DNA of 13,282 nucleotides from an uncultured archaeon. GTDB taxonomy: Archaea > Asgardarchaeota > Lokiarchaeia > Sigyniarchaeales > Promethearchaeaceae. The notes under the pieces are model-generated. The model was not told the DNA's origin. It did no database searches and was given only the letters and a program-made list of their open reading frames with translations. A program made the position numbers and the translations under genes. Location: the NCBI GenBank assembly GCA_964426185.1, contig CAYRPF010000033.1, forward strand, positions 1 through 13,282, written 5' to 3'. Positions 2,086 through 8,520 of this stretch are shown here, in pieces; positions within the stretch are counted from its first letter, which is position 1; each line of letters starts with the position of its first letter.

Positions 2086-4620
2086 TCATATATTGAAATT
2101 TCTAATAAAATCTCGGATTTCCTTGTCTAGATGAATGCGTTTAAACCTTTCTCCTAAGGTTAATTTTTTGAATTCATCGTATCCTTGCTCCTTTTTCATA
2201 TAAGAAAGAAATTTTAATTCCGATGAAACTCTTTTCTTTAATTTTTGGTTATTTAAGTGCACTGCGATATTTATGCTATCTTTTAGTACTTTTGCTGCTT
2301 CATCAAGATGAAATTGTGTGATTGAAATTTTTGCATATAGGATAGAAAGTTCTAAAAGTTCATATCTTACATGAAATTCACGAGATATAACAATCAAGTG
2401 GCCCAAGTGTTTCCTCAAATCAAGGATTAAAGTTTCATCATTAGATGTGAGAATTAATGTCACTAAAAACTCACAGAGATGAAGTAAAGCGGCATGTGTA
2501 ATTGTAGAATCAATAATACTCTCTTCGGTTACTTGTTCAAGAAGGAAAACTGCTTTCATTTGATCCCTATGTTTCCCGCTAAGCGAAAGCAAAAGACCTT
2601 CCACAATTTTTGCAGTTTGAATTATTATATCATCTTTAGCAGTTTTCCGCATTTCAAATAATTTCTCAGCATAGAAGCGGGTTTTTTCTATATCGGTTTC
2701 TAAAAATAGCAATACCAATTTATACAAGATCCAATAAGATTGCAGTTCATTTCCTTCTTTTTTAAAAGAATTCAATCCTTTTTCATAATAATGGAGAGCA
2801 TTGTCCAATTTGTCTATAGCATGATAAATGCCTCCGATTTCGCCATAAATTATTCCTAAAAATTGGGGGTGATTGATTTTTTCAAATAAATTCAAAGCTT
2901 TTTTATATAGATAGAGCGCTAGATTTAAATCAAGAATTTCTACAGCGATCTTTGCTTTTCGTGCTAAACTTATAGCTAAACATTCTTCATCGTCATTATT
3001 TTTTGCTAGATTCTCACATTTATCATAATAATCTAATGCCTCGGATAAAACACCCTTTTTCTTATAAAGATCCCCAATTAAATAATATAAACGAGCTAAT
3101 TCAGTTTTTTCTCCATGAATTTCAAATTTTTCTTTGGCTTGTAAATAATATTTCTCAATTTTTTTAAGGTCTTCTTTTTGAAAGGAAAGAAGGAAACCTA
3201 TACGCATATTGGTTTTTCCCGAAAAAATATCCATTTTCGAAAGATCTTGAATACATTTTAAATTAAATAAACTCTGGTTGAATAAATCAACGCTTTGAGG
3301 TAAGTTGCCTGAATGAAAGGCATTCCATCCTTTACGCTGGTTTATCCAGGCAGTATACTCAGCTTTTAAAACTGGGGGTAAATCTTGCGAAATTTGTAAG
3401 GCTTCATCATAGATTATCTGAGCTGAAGCATTTTCCTCTATAGATTCATAAAATAATGAATAGAGTATCCGATTTTCTATTAAAAGTTCTATAAACGAAA
3501 AATCTTTTAGGATGTCAAAGCTTTTCTCAATCTGTTCTTTAATTTTTTCGAAATTCACTTCTTTTCGGTCTTTTTTACCCAATAAAAGATTTAATTTTGC
3601 AGACATCATTTCAATTATGGCTTTTCGAATTAGATAGTTATTAGAATGGGGTAGACTTTCCATTTCTTGAGGAATTTGACATTGTGCCAGTTTAAGACAC
3701 ATGCTGTATTCATCAAAATTCCTTAATATCCAATCGCTTAAACCAAGGGATGCGTCGAATAACTTAAAGGCGGTTTCAAAAACCATAATCATGCCTGTAT
3801 ATGCTGCGCTTTGAATTAAATTCAGCACCGAATCTATATATAATACAGAATCAGAGATATATTTAGTAAACTCAAACGCTTTTTCTGCGAATTGATTAGC
3901 TAATGGAATTTTTTCCAATTTTTGACAAATATAACTTCCTATTAAATAGTATTTCACGCGATCAATGTCAGAAAAGGGGAAATCCTCCTTAATTTTCTCC
4001 CATTCAGAAAAAGCAGTTTCAAATTTTCGTAAACATATGTAAAGTAGAAGTCTTTGCAACAATTTTGGGATGTTATCTAATCCAAGCCATGATTTTATAT
4101 CATTAGAAGAATATTTTCCAGAAAATTGGATAAATCCAGGGATAAATGTGGGTATAATCTGATTACTTTGGATAATAATGGAATTTACTTCATCATAGAA
4201 AATTAGGAAAATTTTCTCAAAAGCTGATTTAATGCTAGCAAAATTTGGGTTTTCTTTAGCGTTCTTTAAGAATAAGATATCAATTTCGGGTAAGTTTTGA
4301 AACTCTTTTATATATTTTTCAATTAATTGACTAAATAAGGCTTCTTCTTGTGGTTGGATAAGGCCATCTCCCGCCCATATTGAAAGCATACAATCGATAG
4401 AGCCACCTCTTGCATTGAGAGAATCTATAGGAAAAATTGTGTTATATGTGTGTATATCATGAAAATTATACTCAAAATGAATATACTCAGAATAAATATC
4501 TAACAATGAATTAATTTGCTCCAAATTTTCACTATCTATAGGAGGTTTTACCATAAAGGTCGTAGGCCCCACAGTTGTATCAAAATAAGTGAAAATTACA
4601 GATAAATCAGAAAATTCCAT
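2086..4620 (-). CDS. tetratricopeptide-repeat protein with N-terminal uDENN/longin-like domain
   Basis: 844-aa ORF. The N-terminus has IFTYFDTTVGP (aa 9-19) and IDSLNARGG..MLSI (aa 65-81). Residues ~420-640 are TPR-like, e.g. LARLYYLIGDLYKKKGVLSEALDYYDKC and IIYGEIGGIYHAIDKLDNALHYYEKGL. Confidence 0.85.
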   Translation of the reverse strand: MEFSDLSVIFTYFDTTVGPTTFMVKPPIDSENLEQINSLLDIYSEYIHFEYNFHDIHTYNTIFPIDSLNARGGSIDCMLSIWAGDGLIQPQEEALFSQLIEKYIKEFQNLPEIDILFLKNAKENPNFASIKSAFEKIFLIFYDEVNSIIIQSNQIIPTFIPGFIQFSGKYSSNDIKSWLGLDNIPKLLQRLLLYICLRKFETAFSEWEKIKEDFPFSDIDRVKYYLIGSYICQKLEKIPLANQFAEKAFEFTKYISDSVLYIDSVLNLIQSAAYTGMIMVFETAFKLFDASLGLSDWILRNFDEYSMCLKLAQCQIPQEMESLPHSNNYLIRKAIIEMMSAKLNLLLGKKDRKEVNFEKIKEQIEKSFDILKDFSFIELLIENRILYSLFYESIEENASAQIIYDEALQISQDLPPVLKAEYTAWINQRKGWNAFHSGNLPQSVDLFNQSLFNLKCIQDLSKMDIFSGKTNMRIGFLLSFQKEDLKKIEKYYLQAKEKFEIHGEKTELARLYYLIGDLYKKKGVLSEALDYYDKCENLAKNNDDEECLAISLARKAKIAVEILDLNLALYLYKKALNLFEKINHPQFLGIIYGEIGGIYHAIDKLDNALHYYEKGLNSFKKEGNELQSYWILYKLVLLFLETDIEKTRFYAEKLFEMRKTAKDDIIIQTAKIVEGLLLSLSGKHRDQMKAVFLLEQVTEESIIDSTITHAALLHLCEFLVTLILTSNDETLILDLRKHLGHLIVISREFHVRYELLELSILYAKISITQFHLDEAAKVLKDSINIAVHLNNQKLKKRVSSELKFLSYMKKEQGYDEFKKLTLGERFKRIHLDKEIRDFIRNFNI

Positions 4621-4697: not shown

Positions 4698-6641
4698 TTA
4701 AATTTCAAGGAAATTTCTTTTATTTAAAGCATTTAGCAAAATTATGGCAGAAATGGATTCAGCAACTGGTAAAATGCGAGGTACTATACAAGGGTCATGT
4801 CGACCAGGGATTTCTAAAATTTCCATCTGTTTGTTCTGGAAATTTAACGTTTTTTGGGCTTTCTTAATTGAAGCGGTTGGTTTAATTGCGATTGAAAAAC
4901 TTATAGGCATTCCCGTAGTAATTCCTCCCACAATTCCTCCTGAATGATTGGTAATGGTTTCAATTTCCCCGTTTTCACACACAAATGGATCATTATGCTC
5001 GCTTCCGTGCATTTCTGCAGCCGCAAACCCTGTTCCAAATTCAACACCCCGTACACCGGGAATTCCAAAAATGGCTTGCACCAGTTGAGATTCTAAAGAT
5101 TGAAACCAAGGATCCCCAATTCCTTTTGGGAAGTTCAGCACAATTACCTTGATTATGCCCCCAATTGAATCTCCCTCTTGCTGGACCTTTCTAACTTCGG
5201 AAAGCATCTTTTCAGCAATGTTTAAATCAGGATTTCCAATATAACACAGATATTTGGATATATTATAACCATCATTATTTGATTTAGAATTTTCTTCTGG
5301 ATGGGTCAGGATATCTACTCTCTTATCGTGAAATTTGATGAGTTCTTTGGGATTGTATTCATTGTCATCCTTAATTTTCCCGATTTTGGTGATGTATGCA
5401 ATTATGTGAATATCTTGGGCAGATAACATCTGTAAAGCAACTGCTCCACCCATAACGTATGCGGCAGATAGTCTTCCCGAAAAAAATCCACTACCTTTTA
5501 AATTAATATTCTCACCAAATCGCAATTTCGCAGGATAATCCACATGAGAAGGGCGGGGTATTTTCTTAAACAGTTGATAATCTCTTGAATTTACATCTTG
5601 ATTCTTGATAATCATGCGGACGGGTTTTCCATCTGTAAATCCGTTTTGTATGCCATTAGTAATGATAAAATTATCCAGCTCCTTTCGTGAAGATACTATT
5701 TCATTAAATCCGGGTCTTCTCAATTGCAGCATGGTTCGGATTAATGAAAAATCCAATCTAATGCCCCTTTTAATTCCTTTTATAATACAACCGATTTTAT
5801 ACCCATGTGATGTACCAAACCCAGCCACAGAAAAGGAATTTCCCAAGATCATGCTTTGAAAAATTTCCATTCCTTGTAAAAAACTTTTTAGAGAAATCTG
5901 GTTTGGTGCTGTTGTACAGTCTTTGTCAAATGCGACATAGTTTAGGGTATTACCCAAATAAGCCCCTGCTATTCGGGAAAAATGTGAATGGGGGCCTGTA
6001 GCAAAAATCGTAATGGGAACTGCTGAGTGTGAACTTAAGATCTCAAGTTGAAACTGCTCAAATCGCTCTATTTCTTCGTATTCTTCTCTTTCTCTCTCTT
6101 CTATTTCTTTTTCTTTTGGTTCTTTTTCTTCTCGTAATGATCCAGACCTTACCGAAAAGACAATCTTTGGGTAAATCCCTTCGATTTTTAAAAGTTCATC
6201 TAGTTTTTGCCGAAATATAGCCAGATTTTCGGGCAATAAGGCGTGATATGATACAATAATTTTACTAGAAGAAGCATGAAGCGCTTCTTGCGTGAATTTA
6301 GCGTTATTCAAGATATTGTCAAATTTTTGGAGGTTACTCCATTCAATATCAATGAAATCGAAGTTCAATTCCAGCGCAGTTTGAAATAACTCTCTTCGCA
6401 AAATATCGGTATAATTATGAACACCACCCTCTTTATAATCCCGAATGGTTAATATTAAAGGCTTCTTACTGCAATTTTTAATGTATTTAAGTAATTTCTT
6501 TGAAATTTGCTGGGGGTGCAGATAATCCAATCGAATTTCGATTATATCGATTTCAGAAACTGCGTTTATTGCCTCGATTCGTGCAAATAATTCATTGTGA
6601 GAATTAAAACTAAAACAACCAACTATATTTTTTTTTGGAAT
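4698..6641 (-). CDS. aroD-aroC: fused type I 3-dehydroquinate dehydratase (AroD) / chorismate synthase (AroC)
   Basis: One ORF. The AroD part (~6641-5853) has DIIEIRLDYL, LTIRDYKEGG, DFIDIEW, IIVSYH, PKIV (Schiff-base Lys), SRI and TAPNQ. The AroC part (5852-4698) has FGTSHG, RRPG, PRPSHVD, FSGRL, GDSIGG, IPGVRGVEFG, TNHSGGIVGGIT, KPTAS and GRHDPC. The start is uncertain: the TTG at 6530 falls inside the EIRLD motif, the frame is open to 6695, and ATT at 6641 is proposed. Confidence 0.92.
   Translation of the reverse strand: MPKKNIVGCFSFNSHNELFARIEAINAVSEIDIIEIRLDYLHPQQISKKLLKYIKNCSKKPLILTIRDYKEGGVHNYTDILRRELFQTALELNFDFIDIEWSNLQKFDNILNNAKFTQEALHASSSKIIVSYHALLPENLAIFRQKLDELLKIEGIYPKIVFSVRSGSLREEKEPKEKEIEEREREEYEEIERFEQFQLEILSSHSAVPITIFATGPHSHFSRIAGAYLGNTLNYVAFDKDCTTAPNQISLKSFLQGMEIFQSMILGNSFSVAGFGTSHGYKIGCIIKGIKRGIRLDFSLIRTMLQLRRPGFNEIVSSRKELDNFIITNGIQNGFTDGKPVRMIIKNQDVNSRDYQLFKKIPRPSHVDYPAKLRFGENINLKGSGFFSGRLSAAYVMGGAVALQMLSAQDIHIIAYITKIGKIKDDNEYNPKELIKFHDKRVDILTHPEENSKSNNDGYNISKYLCYIGNPDLNIAEKMLSEVRKVQQEGDSIGGIIKVIVLNFPKGIGDPWFQSLESQLVQAIFGIPGVRGVEFGTGFAAAEMHGSEHNDPFVCENGEIETITNHSGGIVGGITTGMPISFSIAIKPTASIKKAQKTLNFQNKQMEILEIPGRHDPCIVPRILPVAESISAIILLNALNKRNFLEI
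4714..4894. repeat. 181-bp direct repeat, copy 2 (within the intact aroC 3' end)
   Basis: 177/181 identical to 1805..1985. Confidence 0.97.
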
Positions 6642-6647
6642 AAATTT

Positions 6648-6673
6648 TCCCCCTACTGTTATGCTATATTTAA
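6648..6673 (-). promoter_or_regulatory. putative TATA box (TTAAATA) and purine-rich SD-like GGGGGA upstream of aroD-aroC
   Basis: The minus strand reads CCTTAAATATAGCATAACAGTAGGGGGAAAATTT-ATT. TATA-like at 6673-6667, G5 at 6653-6649. Confidence 0.4.
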
Positions 6674-6802
6674 GGTTATACTCAAATACTACACATTAAT
6701 GATATATTTCTATCAACAATATACTTCTATAATTCATTTCAATATTATTATTCAATAATAAATTTCCATAATACACTCCAATGCTAACTCTAAATTCTGA
6801 TA

Positions 6803-8215
6803 CTATGTATATAAAGAATCAAGCAGCTCAAAAAAATTTGGGAATGATTTTTTCACGCAATCTGGATCTTGAATTTCCATCCCATCGATTCGCAGACCTG
6901 CTATGGAAAATCCCATGGCAATACGATGATCATTTTGAGGATCCACCAAAATTCCGTGATAGGATTCTTGAGGCTCAATTATAAGAAAAGAATCACTTAA
7001 AATCACTTTCGCACCGAGATTTGTCAGATAGCGATTCAATAAATCCAGACGATTGCTTTCTTTAAATTTCAAATGCCCGATATTGGTAAAACTTGAGGTC
7101 CCATCTGCAAATAAGGCAGCAATTGCCAATGGAATTACCAAATCGGGATAATTCCCCAAATCAACCGCGATGGACTGCAAGCTTCGATAATTATTACTTT
7201 CATTATTATTATTTATATTATTATTTTCTGTTGCGGGAAAGATCTTAATTTTATCGTTGTCAAATTCAAATTTACAGCCCATTTTCTGCAAACAGTCAAT
7301 TATATAACGATCTCCTTGTATCGAATTAGAAGTAATCCCATTTATTACAATTGACCCCCCACAAATTGCCGCGGCTACAAAAAAGAAAGAAGCTGCAGAA
7401 TAATCCCCTTCAACCGTGATATTTTGGGATAAATACGGGCCTTGAAAGGGTATTTGAGCAGTTATTATTCCATTTTGCATTTCTGAATTTATACTGGCCC
7501 CAAATTTCTGCATTAATTCAAGAGTCATTTTGATATAAGGAACCGAGTGATGTATACCCGCAGAATGAATAATTAGCCCTTCTTCCAATAATGGTGCAAT
7601 AAGTAAAAGCGAACTGAAATATTGGCTGCTCTCCTCAATAGAAATAGTAATTTCACCCCCTCTTAATCTTCCGTGAATTTTAACAGGAGGATATCCATCA
7701 TCTTCAATAAAGTCGACTTTCACTCCTTTTTGGCTCAAAACTTGACTTAATTCTCGTACGGGACGGAATTTCATACCTTTGGCGCATTGTAAAGTGATTG
7801 GTTGATCCAACAGGACAGAAATGGTCATGAAAAAACGATAGCCGGTGCCCGAATTACCTAAATATATCTCCTCCGGCGGCGAAGGAAATATCCCTTGACA
7901 ACCGTTAAGATAGGTTTCTCCATTCTCCTCCCAGATATCAACTCCTAATTGCTTTAAGGCATTGATTGTCAACTTAACATCTTCACATTGAGAGAGATTG
8001 TGAATTTTTGAAATACCTTTGGCCAATGCGGCTAAAATTAGCACACGATGGCTGATACTTTTCGATCCGGGAATAGATATACAGGTACTATGATTAATTC
8101 GGTTTATCTGGTCTATCTGGTTTATCTTCTTTATTCGCTTTTTCTGCTCCAATTTCTTAATTTTGCGGATGTTAACCACGCTGTTTTGTTCGACATCATT
8201 CATATTTGGATTCAT
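6803..8215 (-). CDS. aroA: 3-phosphoshikimate 1-carboxyvinyltransferase (EPSP synthase)
   Basis: Motifs PGSKSISHR, LGNSGT, RP, SSQYFSSLL, EGDYSAA, QGD, PDL, KESNRL, DHRIAM and CVKKSFPNF. There is a ~40-aa low-complexity N-terminal extension, so the exact start is uncertain. Confidence 0.96.
   Translation of the reverse strand: MNPNMNDVEQNSVVNIRKIKKLEQKKRIKKINQIDQINRINHSTCISIPGSKSISHRVLILAALAKGISKIHNLSQCEDVKLTINALKQLGVDIWEENGETYLNGCQGIFPSPPEEIYLGNSGTGYRFFMTISVLLDQPITLQCAKGMKFRPVRELSQVLSQKGVKVDFIEDDGYPPVKIHGRLRGGEITISIEESSQYFSSLLLIAPLLEEGLIIHSAGIHHSVPYIKMTLELMQKFGASINSEMQNGIITAQIPFQGPYLSQNITVEGDYSAASFFFVAAAICGGSIVINGITSNSIQGDRYIIDCLQKMGCKFEFDNDKIKIFPATENNNINNNNESNNYRSLQSIAVDLGNYPDLVIPLAIAALFADGTSSFTNIGHLKFKESNRLDLLNRYLTNLGAKVILSDSFLIIEPQESYHGILVDPQNDHRIAMGFSIAGLRIDGMEIQDPDCVKKSFPNFFELLDSLYT
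8101..8127. repeat. 3 x 9-bp in-frame tandem repeat in the aroA N-terminus
   Basis: GGTTTATCT GGTCTATCT GGTTTATCT, encoding INQ-IDQ-INR. Confidence 0.85.
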
Positions 8216-8235: not shown

Positions 8236-8520
8236 TTAATTTTTGCTTATACTGCGAATTCGTTGCAAATCTTTCATTTCAATAATAATTCGGGCGAATA
8301 TATCATGTATAAATTCGGGATCTAAGCCATACTCTTGCGCTAACTCATGATATTTTTCAAAAAGGGCTTGTTCGCGCTCGGGATGAAAAATTGGAATATG
8401 TTCTTTTTGCTTGATTGAAACGATTTCTGGAACTAAGTTCAAGCGTTGCCGCAATAATTGGATAATTTTCTCATCTATTTCTTCAATTGAATCTCGAATT
8501 TGTTTTAAGGAAGAGGCCAT
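8236..8520 (-). CDS. aroQ: monofunctional chorismate mutase (AroQ / CM type II)
   Basis: 94 aa with pattern LxxxRxxIxxIDxxIxxLLxxR...K....PI..PERE. It ends 20 bp upstream of aroA on the same strand. Confidence 0.9.
   Translation of the reverse strand: MASSLKQIRDSIEEIDEKIIQLLRQRLNLVPEIVSIKQKEHIPIFHPEREQALFEKYHELAQEYGLDPEFIHDIFARIIIEMKDLQRIRSISKN

Follow-up and report, generated by a model that had tools for sequence, protein, structure and literature searches.

What is gained when two enzymes that catalyze non-consecutive steps of a pathway are joined in a single polypeptide? Shikimate enzymes supply the textbook pathway fusions, AROM and DHQ-SDH (dehydroquinate dehydratase-shikimate dehydrogenase), which are usually explained by substrate hand-over between consecutive steps. 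The question is raised here by a gene of an uncultured Asgard archaeon that shares its GTDB genus with Ca. Harpocratesius repetitus. The gene is found on a stretch of 13,282 nucleotides (positions 1-13,282 of contig CAYRPF010000033.1, GenBank assembly GCA_964426185.1) that we call the window. A preliminary description of this DNA had placed at 4698-6641 an in-frame fusion of type I 3-dehydroquinate dehydratase (AroD, step 3 of the shikimate pathway) to chorismate synthase (AroC, step 7). Both the coordinates and the in-frame fusion hold, but the gene sits on the minus strand, in a single open frame of 665 codons (6695..4698) that ends with TAA. The plus-strand reading of 4698-6641 was ruled out, its translation being full of stops. 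The 647-residue product of window:4701-6641:-, here called P0001, carries two Pfam families, confirming in one frame the union of steps 3 and 7.

We find that the AroD-AroC fusion is real, conserved and narrowly distributed, with a rare domain order, and that it is in all likelihood a genuine bifunctional enzyme, with AroD placed head-to-tail with AroC and both activities predicted from sequence. As a two-domain variant within the known shikimate-pathway fusions, it is mildly interesting rather than surprising.

Two enzyme domains in one reading frame

The Chorismate_synt match (PF01264) covers residues 270-638 with an E value of 1.7e-104 and 349.5 bits against a cut-off of 27, and the AroC domain also scores above the NCBIfam equivalog cut-offs, with 342 versus 212.2 bits for TIGR00033 and 341.2 versus 321 for NF003793. 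Its motifs are intact: GTSHG (276-280), RRPG (308-311), RPSHVDY (363-369), SGRLS (388-392) and GRHDPC (613-618). The beta-alpha-beta sandwich fold of chorismate synthase is recovered when the predicted structure is searched with Foldseek, which returns 7RCA (E 9.4e-33, TM-score 0.85) and 1UM0 (TM-score 0.84). By sequence, the yeast chorismate synthase 1R52 (E 4.8e-70) ranks first among solved structures. The top solved relatives are in fact fungal, with 240 bits for S. cerevisiae 1R52 and 234 for 7RCA, while all bacterial chains stay at or below 190 bits.

The AroD domain matches DHquinase_I of Pfam in two stretches (E 1.1e-24, 88.3 bits versus a cut-off of 22.2), and Foldseek with its AlphaFold2 model finds the (beta/alpha)8 barrel of S. 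typhi AroD, 1QFE (E 4.9e-11, TM-score 0.76 on the target), after which many Salmonella AroD entries rank. Among solved structures, its best sequence match is the Arabidopsis DHQ-SDH chain. All nine canonical AroD residues are present in the window copy: E35 (E46), R37 (R48), D39 (D50), R67 (R82), E71 (E86), H133 (H143), K159 (K170), R223 (R213) and Q248 (Q236), where the brackets give the Salmonella positions that we take to be equivalent, K159 and H133 presumably being the Schiff-base lysine and the catalytic histidine. K159 (6167-6165) lies within YPKIV and H133 (6245-6243) within SYHAL, and the two line up with PKI and SYH in Aquifex 2EGZ. Residues were compared in an AroD-only alignment of 28 sequences, the standalone AroD being drawn from genome loci, and E35, R37, D39, H133, K159, R223 and Q248 are invariant across it. 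With nine AroD residues and five AroC motifs in the window copy, the catalytic motifs of both domains are kept; the preliminary description had seen them as largely retained. One peculiarity of the AroD domain is a charged insert at residues 168-188, which is species-specific, since it is missing from all other fused homologues in the alignment.

Conservation, distribution and origin of the fusion

The same locus with an identical junction occurs in a sibling assembly (GCA_054388175.1, contig JBQSLD010000055.1), which is 99.8% identical to the window over 2187 nt, with 4 mismatches and zero indels. Fused open reading frames of 599-666 codons are found in three other genomes: G135, which is Ca. 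Harpocratesius repetitus FW102 on a single 4.36 Mb contig, and G136, both of the same genus as the window genome, and G138 of the same family. Metagenome proteins P0003, P0005, P0007 and P0010-P0012 also carry both domains. These fused relatives are 38-59% identical to the window protein and comprise at least 10 distinct fused sequences in that range; the fused state has therefore been kept over a long divergence.

Outside this group the architecture is scarce. When 1.84 billion proteins representing clusters at 50% identity were searched without a profile, the best 150 of 8236 matches, a listing that may miss more distant fusions, begin with five full-length fused clusters and continue with standalone AroC. 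An AroC match is present in 218 genomes of a 400-genome phylum sample, and frames of more than 600 codons occur in only four of them (G000, G135, G136 and G138). Within the Lokiarchaeal family of the window genome, 4 of the 14 genomes have the fusion and 10 have AroC frames of 363-393 codons. In the neighboring large family f3, no listed genome has a fusion; AroC is standalone there, and AroD is not linked to it, being encoded on a different contig in some cases. The preliminary description had named three results that could overturn its reading, and each turned out the other way: the junction contains no stop, the homologues are not always split and the architecture is not widespread. A weak AroD match in one family member (G141:C73:7057-7368) lies inside an open frame of 746 codons distinct from the AroC gene, and this frame may be a different AroD fusion.

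Close relatives also preserve an unfused arrangement. G137, a single-contig genome from the genus of the fused G138, has aroA-aroB-aroD-aroC as separate genes; its aroD (238 aa) and aroC (368 aa) are read in different frames and share 23 nt. On the contig of P0013 (JABCTP010000430.1), a gap of 33 nt separates aroD from the aroC that follows it. The AroD tree unites every copy fused to aroC or next to it in one clade (Shimodaira-Hasegawa-like approximate likelihood ratio test, SH-aLRT, 99), parted by a long branch from the unlinked Lokiarchaeal AroD; AroD of other Lokiarchaeal genomes is found on other contigs or far from aroC. The linked clade divides into clade A, which includes the window protein and is fused in 8 of 8 rows (support 95 and 99 in the AroD and AroC trees, respectively), and clade B, with two fused and two split rows in the AroD tree. 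The AroC tree agrees on both clades. The linker differs between clades A and B in length and sequence, and the fewest changes that account for the pattern are two or three.

Since aroD and aroC are split but adjacent in two relatives, a merger of operon neighbors is indicated, and we regard it as the most likely origin, with a direction, fusion rather than fission, that we infer. In such a history, aroD would first have been placed directly upstream of aroC within an aroA-(aroB)-aroD-aroC operon, and the stop codon and spacer between aroD and aroC would then have been lost. After two Harpocratesius-like loci, the next-best matches to AroD of the fused clade, in a scan of species-representative genomes with one peptide pattern, are bacterial (24-29% identity) and come from Calditrichaceae, Ca. 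Brocadia and Desulfocapsa. Together with the long branch, these matches could be a sign that the linked AroD is of foreign origin, for which we make no claim.

Junction and predicted docking of the two domains

No stop separates the domains, the junction reads as first quoted, and no linker has been added. The AlphaFold2 model of P0001, built on a 100-row alignment, has a mean predicted local distance difference test score (pLDDT) of 92.9 and a predicted template-modeling score (pTM) of 0.93. In it, the last AroD helix (251-263) leads almost directly into the first AroC strand (271-276), and the "linker" is therefore only the N-terminal segment of AroC itself. The insert at 168-188 lengthens a long helix (177-204), and in the model this helix is in contact with AroC. 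A Foldseek search with the model found no solved chain spanning both AroD and AroC.

The model supports an AroD barrel docked on the N-terminal sheet of AroC. When the domains are given to a complex predictor as separate chains, the interface score ipSAE is 0.74, 0.74 and 0.71 in three runs, and the best of 3 controls is 0.00; in a calibration that is approximate, since the alignments were self-made, 58 of 80 solved complexes attain the mark for this score, as do 2 of 110 mismatched pairs. The runs share at least 97% of their contacts, with a partner pLDDT of at least 84. The predicted interface comprises residues 184-204, 218-229 and 256-262 on the AroD side, including residues 184, 185 and 188 of the insert, and residues 264-265, 273-286, 328-344, 375 and 386 on the AroC side.

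Several of these positions distinguish clade A. On the AroC side, M264, T328, N329 and R342 occur in all eight clade A sequences, and position 386 is hydrophobic in clade A versus Arg in standalone and clade B proteins. On the AroD side, E195 is likewise found in 8 of 8 clade A sequences, its place being taken by a hydrophobic residue in 16 unlinked AroD sequences. Such clade-specific residues fit co-adaptation following an old fusion, and it seems that, once fused, one lineage acquired a surface dedicated to the contact between the domains. In clade A, as the older and always-fused lineage, the AroD barrel would be held on the AroC sheet by this co-adapted surface. The idea that clade B fusions are floppy was dropped, because the gap between the G138 fusion (pTM 0.86) and the window protein (0.93) is too small.

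Start codons and the methionine at the junction

No ATG, GTG or TTG precedes the first AroD strand of the window gene. The first canonical start is TTG 6530, and starting there would cost E35 and R37; the true start is probably ATA 6662 or ATT 6641. In the sibling assembly, the product P0002 is called from the ATA equivalent to 6662, and the same ATA is present there. A GGGGG run lies about 8 nt upstream of ATT 6641, a TTAAATAT box stands directly ahead of ATA 6662, and the orthologue in G135 begins with a normal ATG.

The ATG at 5852, proposed in the preliminary description as a possible internal start, encodes M264 and lies at the junction as described. No Shine-Dalgarno-like motif upstream of Met264 is conserved across three genomes. 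The residue aligned to M264 is N or D in standalone Lokiarchaeal AroC, whose own start Met lies further upstream and does not align with Met264.

Pathway context and function

The window genome (3.26 Mb, 92% complete) contains one DHquinase_I domain and one full Chorismate_synt domain, both in the fusion open reading frame, and no type II dehydroquinase was found in it. G135, a genome on one contig, shows the same picture: its only AroD is the fused one, and no type II dehydroquinase was found. The rest of the pathway is present in the window genome: AroA and chorismate mutase (CM) are encoded within the window, and DHQ synthase II, AroE and an SKI-type AroK lie on other contigs than the fusion. 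AroB was not found in this genome, either with PF01761 or with the G138 AroB protein as query. Dehydroquinate would be made by the archaeal DHQ synthase II (PF01959) encoded at C51:2377-3540 of the same genome. In the sister genus g5 (G137, G138), a bacterial-type aroB stands inside an aroA-aroB-aroD-aroC operon.

As the sole dehydroquinase and the sole full chorismate synthase found in its genome, with intact core residues, the fusion is expected to be a working enzyme for both steps. Each domain would catalyze its normal reaction independently; there would be no direct substrate hand-over between them, because steps 3 and 7 are non-consecutive. The fusion would fix a 1:1 ratio and co-folding of the two domains, although any such selective benefit is only inferred.

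Several points weigh against an active two-domain enzyme with co-adapted parts that arose by one simple merger. The AroD domain is diverged, reaching 77 bits with the equivalog_domain profile TIGR01093 (NCBIfam), below its cut-off of 139.3, and its phmmer matches to solved AroD structures are weak. E71, the Glu86 equivalent, is replaced in all four clade B and two clade A sequences, and R67 and E71 are both missing in P0010. The window gene is without a canonical start codon. The docking is a model result on self-made alignments, from runs that differ in seed only, and a clade B fusion also has a high pTM (0.86), so this score is not specific to the co-adapted clade. As for the origin, the trees do not discriminate between a history of one fusion and one fission and a history in which the genes fused two or three times independently.

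Part of this evidence would suit an AroD domain that is dead or has become a repurposed scaffold, while something else dehydrates dehydroquinate: the equivalog cut-off is missed, the domain carries a charged insert of 21 residues, and relatives have lost E71 or, in P0010, R67 as well. We consider this very improbable for the window copy, in which none of the nine canonical residues is lost, including the Lys that forms the Schiff base and the catalytic His, and which lies in a genome where, as in G135, no other dehydroquinase of type I or II was found although the remaining pathway is present. In some relatives, given the loss of E71, AroD chemistry may be altered. The absence of a canonical start for the full-length form, along with the retention of Met264 in all eight clade A fusions, could instead mean that internal initiation at Met264 yields two products, or chiefly free AroC, so that the gene would be functionally close to an overlapping operon pair. 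This too is improbable: the motif and alignment comparisons at Met264 give it no Shine-Dalgarno-like motif shared by the three genomes and no counterpart among the start codons of standalone AroC, its conservation is explained by its place in the predicted interface, and AroD must still be translated, being the only dehydroquinase found. That the fusion is an assembly or sequencing artefact merging adjacent genes is hardly credible. The contig is derived from a metagenome-assembled genome, and the relative G137 does have both genes one frame apart with their 23-nt overlap, yet the identical junction recurs in a second assembly, the distinct fused sequences include one from a single-contig genome, and clade-specific junction residues argue for long-term selection on the fused form.

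A further alternative accepts the bifunctional enzyme and asks more of it, namely that the fusion nucleates a larger, AROM-like shikimate assembly, through contacts of an AroC tetramer and an AroD dimer, or that the domains regulate each other. The predicted interface is specific (ipSAE 0.71 to 0.74, pTM 0.93) and lies beside the AroD helix after R223, with AroC residues 275-276 and 280-282 flanking the loop of the catalytic-site His279. Its clade-specific residues suggest selection on the contact, and the many other AroC fusions indicate that both AroC termini tolerate pathway partners. However, AroE, AroK and DHQ synthase II are encoded on other contigs, steps 3 and 7 have no common intermediate, and co-adapted interfaces also arise neutrally after fusion; an assembling or regulatory role therefore seems unlikely. 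It is somewhat more doubtful still that AroD, locked on a face of AroC beside both active-site loops, couples the first committed dehydration to the last step, allosterically or as the seed of an AROM-like metabolon. If it did, archaea would have reached pathway super-complexes by a route of their own, separate from that of eukaryotes. The genuine bifunctional enzyme, with each domain doing its own reaction, is the reading we retain.

Relation to known shikimate-pathway fusions

The preliminary description assumed that shikimate fusions never include AroC, a premise that fails, as AroC fusions are common in sequence databases. The protein libraries contain AroA-AroC, AroK-AroC, AroC-AroK, AroC-CM, AroC-CM-PDT, AroC-CM-AroE-AroK, AroC-AroD-AroE and TyrA-AroC-AroD-AroE. 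Its suspicion that AroD-AroC had not been described fared better: full-text literature searches found no description, and the shikimate fusions recorded in a survey of archaeal fusion proteins from 2024 are AroD-AroE and AroE-AroK, with no AroD-AroC (PMC11237513). The fusion has been present in public databases since the genome of Ca. Harpocratesius repetitus FW102 was deposited, and public records label the fused proteins only "chorismate synthase". Pathway reconstructions for these Asgard genomes will therefore list step 3, wrongly, among the gaps.

Among known architectures, a similar layout is seen in AroD-AroE, known from plant DHQ-SDH (PDB 2GPT/2O7S) and also found in Methanofastidiosa, Methanomassiliicoccales and Planctomycetes, which likewise has a type I AroD barrel at the N terminus of a two-enzyme fusion. 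There the partner performs the next step (4) and channeling is plausible, whereas the partner in the window protein performs step 7. AROM/Aro1 of fungi and protists (steps 2-6) also combines several shikimate enzymes, including a type I AroD, in one chain, and its structure 5SWV is a weak match to the window AroD. However, AROM lacks chorismate synthase, and the window protein has two domains only, an archaeal host and no sign of common descent with AROM; the series AroB-AroA-AroK-AroD-AroE (steps 2-6) is not in one chain here, AroA being a separate gene.

Two metagenomic proteins, P0093 (AroC-AroD-AroE, 781 aa) and P0112 (TyrA-AroC-AroD-AroE, 1090 aa), share with the window protein the presence of Chorismate_synt and DHquinase_I in one chain. 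In these the order is reversed, AroC preceding AroD, AroE is attached, and the AroC part is 38-41% identical to that of the window; they are fusions independent of the window's. The other AroC fusions, with AroA, AroK, CM, PDT or AroE among their partners, show that pathway enzymes are tolerated at either AroC terminus, but their partners perform adjacent or downstream steps and none has AroD directly N-terminal to AroC. A further comparison is offered by the split aroD and aroC of the sister lineages (G137 and JABCTP010000430.1), which belong to the same AroD and AroC clades and keep the same gene order, but remain two genes and do not have the interface residues typical of clade A (R342, hydrophobic 386, E195). 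Here the fusion is conserved although its steps are non-consecutive, and close relatives show both the split and the fused state, a natural comparison for the gain of a fusion without channeling, through fixed stoichiometry, stability or a neutral ratchet.

Gene neighborhood

The features of the fusion gene and its same-strand neighbors are collected in Table 1. The gene is the last of a cluster that runs from chorismate mutase through EPSP synthase to aroD-aroC, and this order is repeated on the sibling contig. The order aroA, then aroD-aroC, is also found in G136, G137 and G138, with separate aroD and aroC in G137.

Table 1. Positions in the window of the aroD-aroC gene, its parts and the adjacent pathway genes
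Feature	Coordinates	Strand	Remarks
aroD-aroC fusion gene	4698..6662	-	start uncertain (ATA 6662-6660 or ATT 6641-6639); stop TAA 4700-4698
AroD domain, type I 3-dehydroquinate dehydratase	5856..6641	-	P0001 residues 1-262; PF01487, 88.3 bits
AroC domain, chorismate synthase	4701..5852	-	P0001 residues 264-647; PF01264, 349.5 bits; TIGR00033
Charged insert of about 21 residues (168-188) in AroD	6078..6140	-	alignment of fused homologues
ATG of M264 at the domain junction	5850..5852	-	Met in 8/8 clade A fusions
aroA, EPSP synthase (step 6), directly upstream	6803..8215	-	PF00275, E 2.8e-98; TIGR01356, 373.6 bits
Chorismate mutase (CM_2), opening the same-strand cluster	8236..8520	-	PF01817, E 3.5e-23

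In the EPSP synthase (6803-8215), the Pfam match is preceded by about 40 extra N-terminal residues, and the protein also contains a low-complexity insert rich in Asn, NNNINNNNESNN. An ARAGORN scan of the window returned zero tRNA genes.

The 3' end of aroC is present twice, as a 181-nt direct repeat with copies at 1805-1985 and 4714-4894 that differ at 4 positions. The repeats flank a 2.9-kb segment that holds only a gene for an 844-aa TPR protein (the repeats enclose 2086-4620) and in which no integrase was seen. In the 99.8%-identical sibling assembly, this TPR segment is absent and aroC passes straight into a histidine kinase gene. At 4886, the aroC end of the sibling agrees with the proximal repeat copy, and at 4762, 4742 and 4737 with the distal one, which puts the join inside the repeat.

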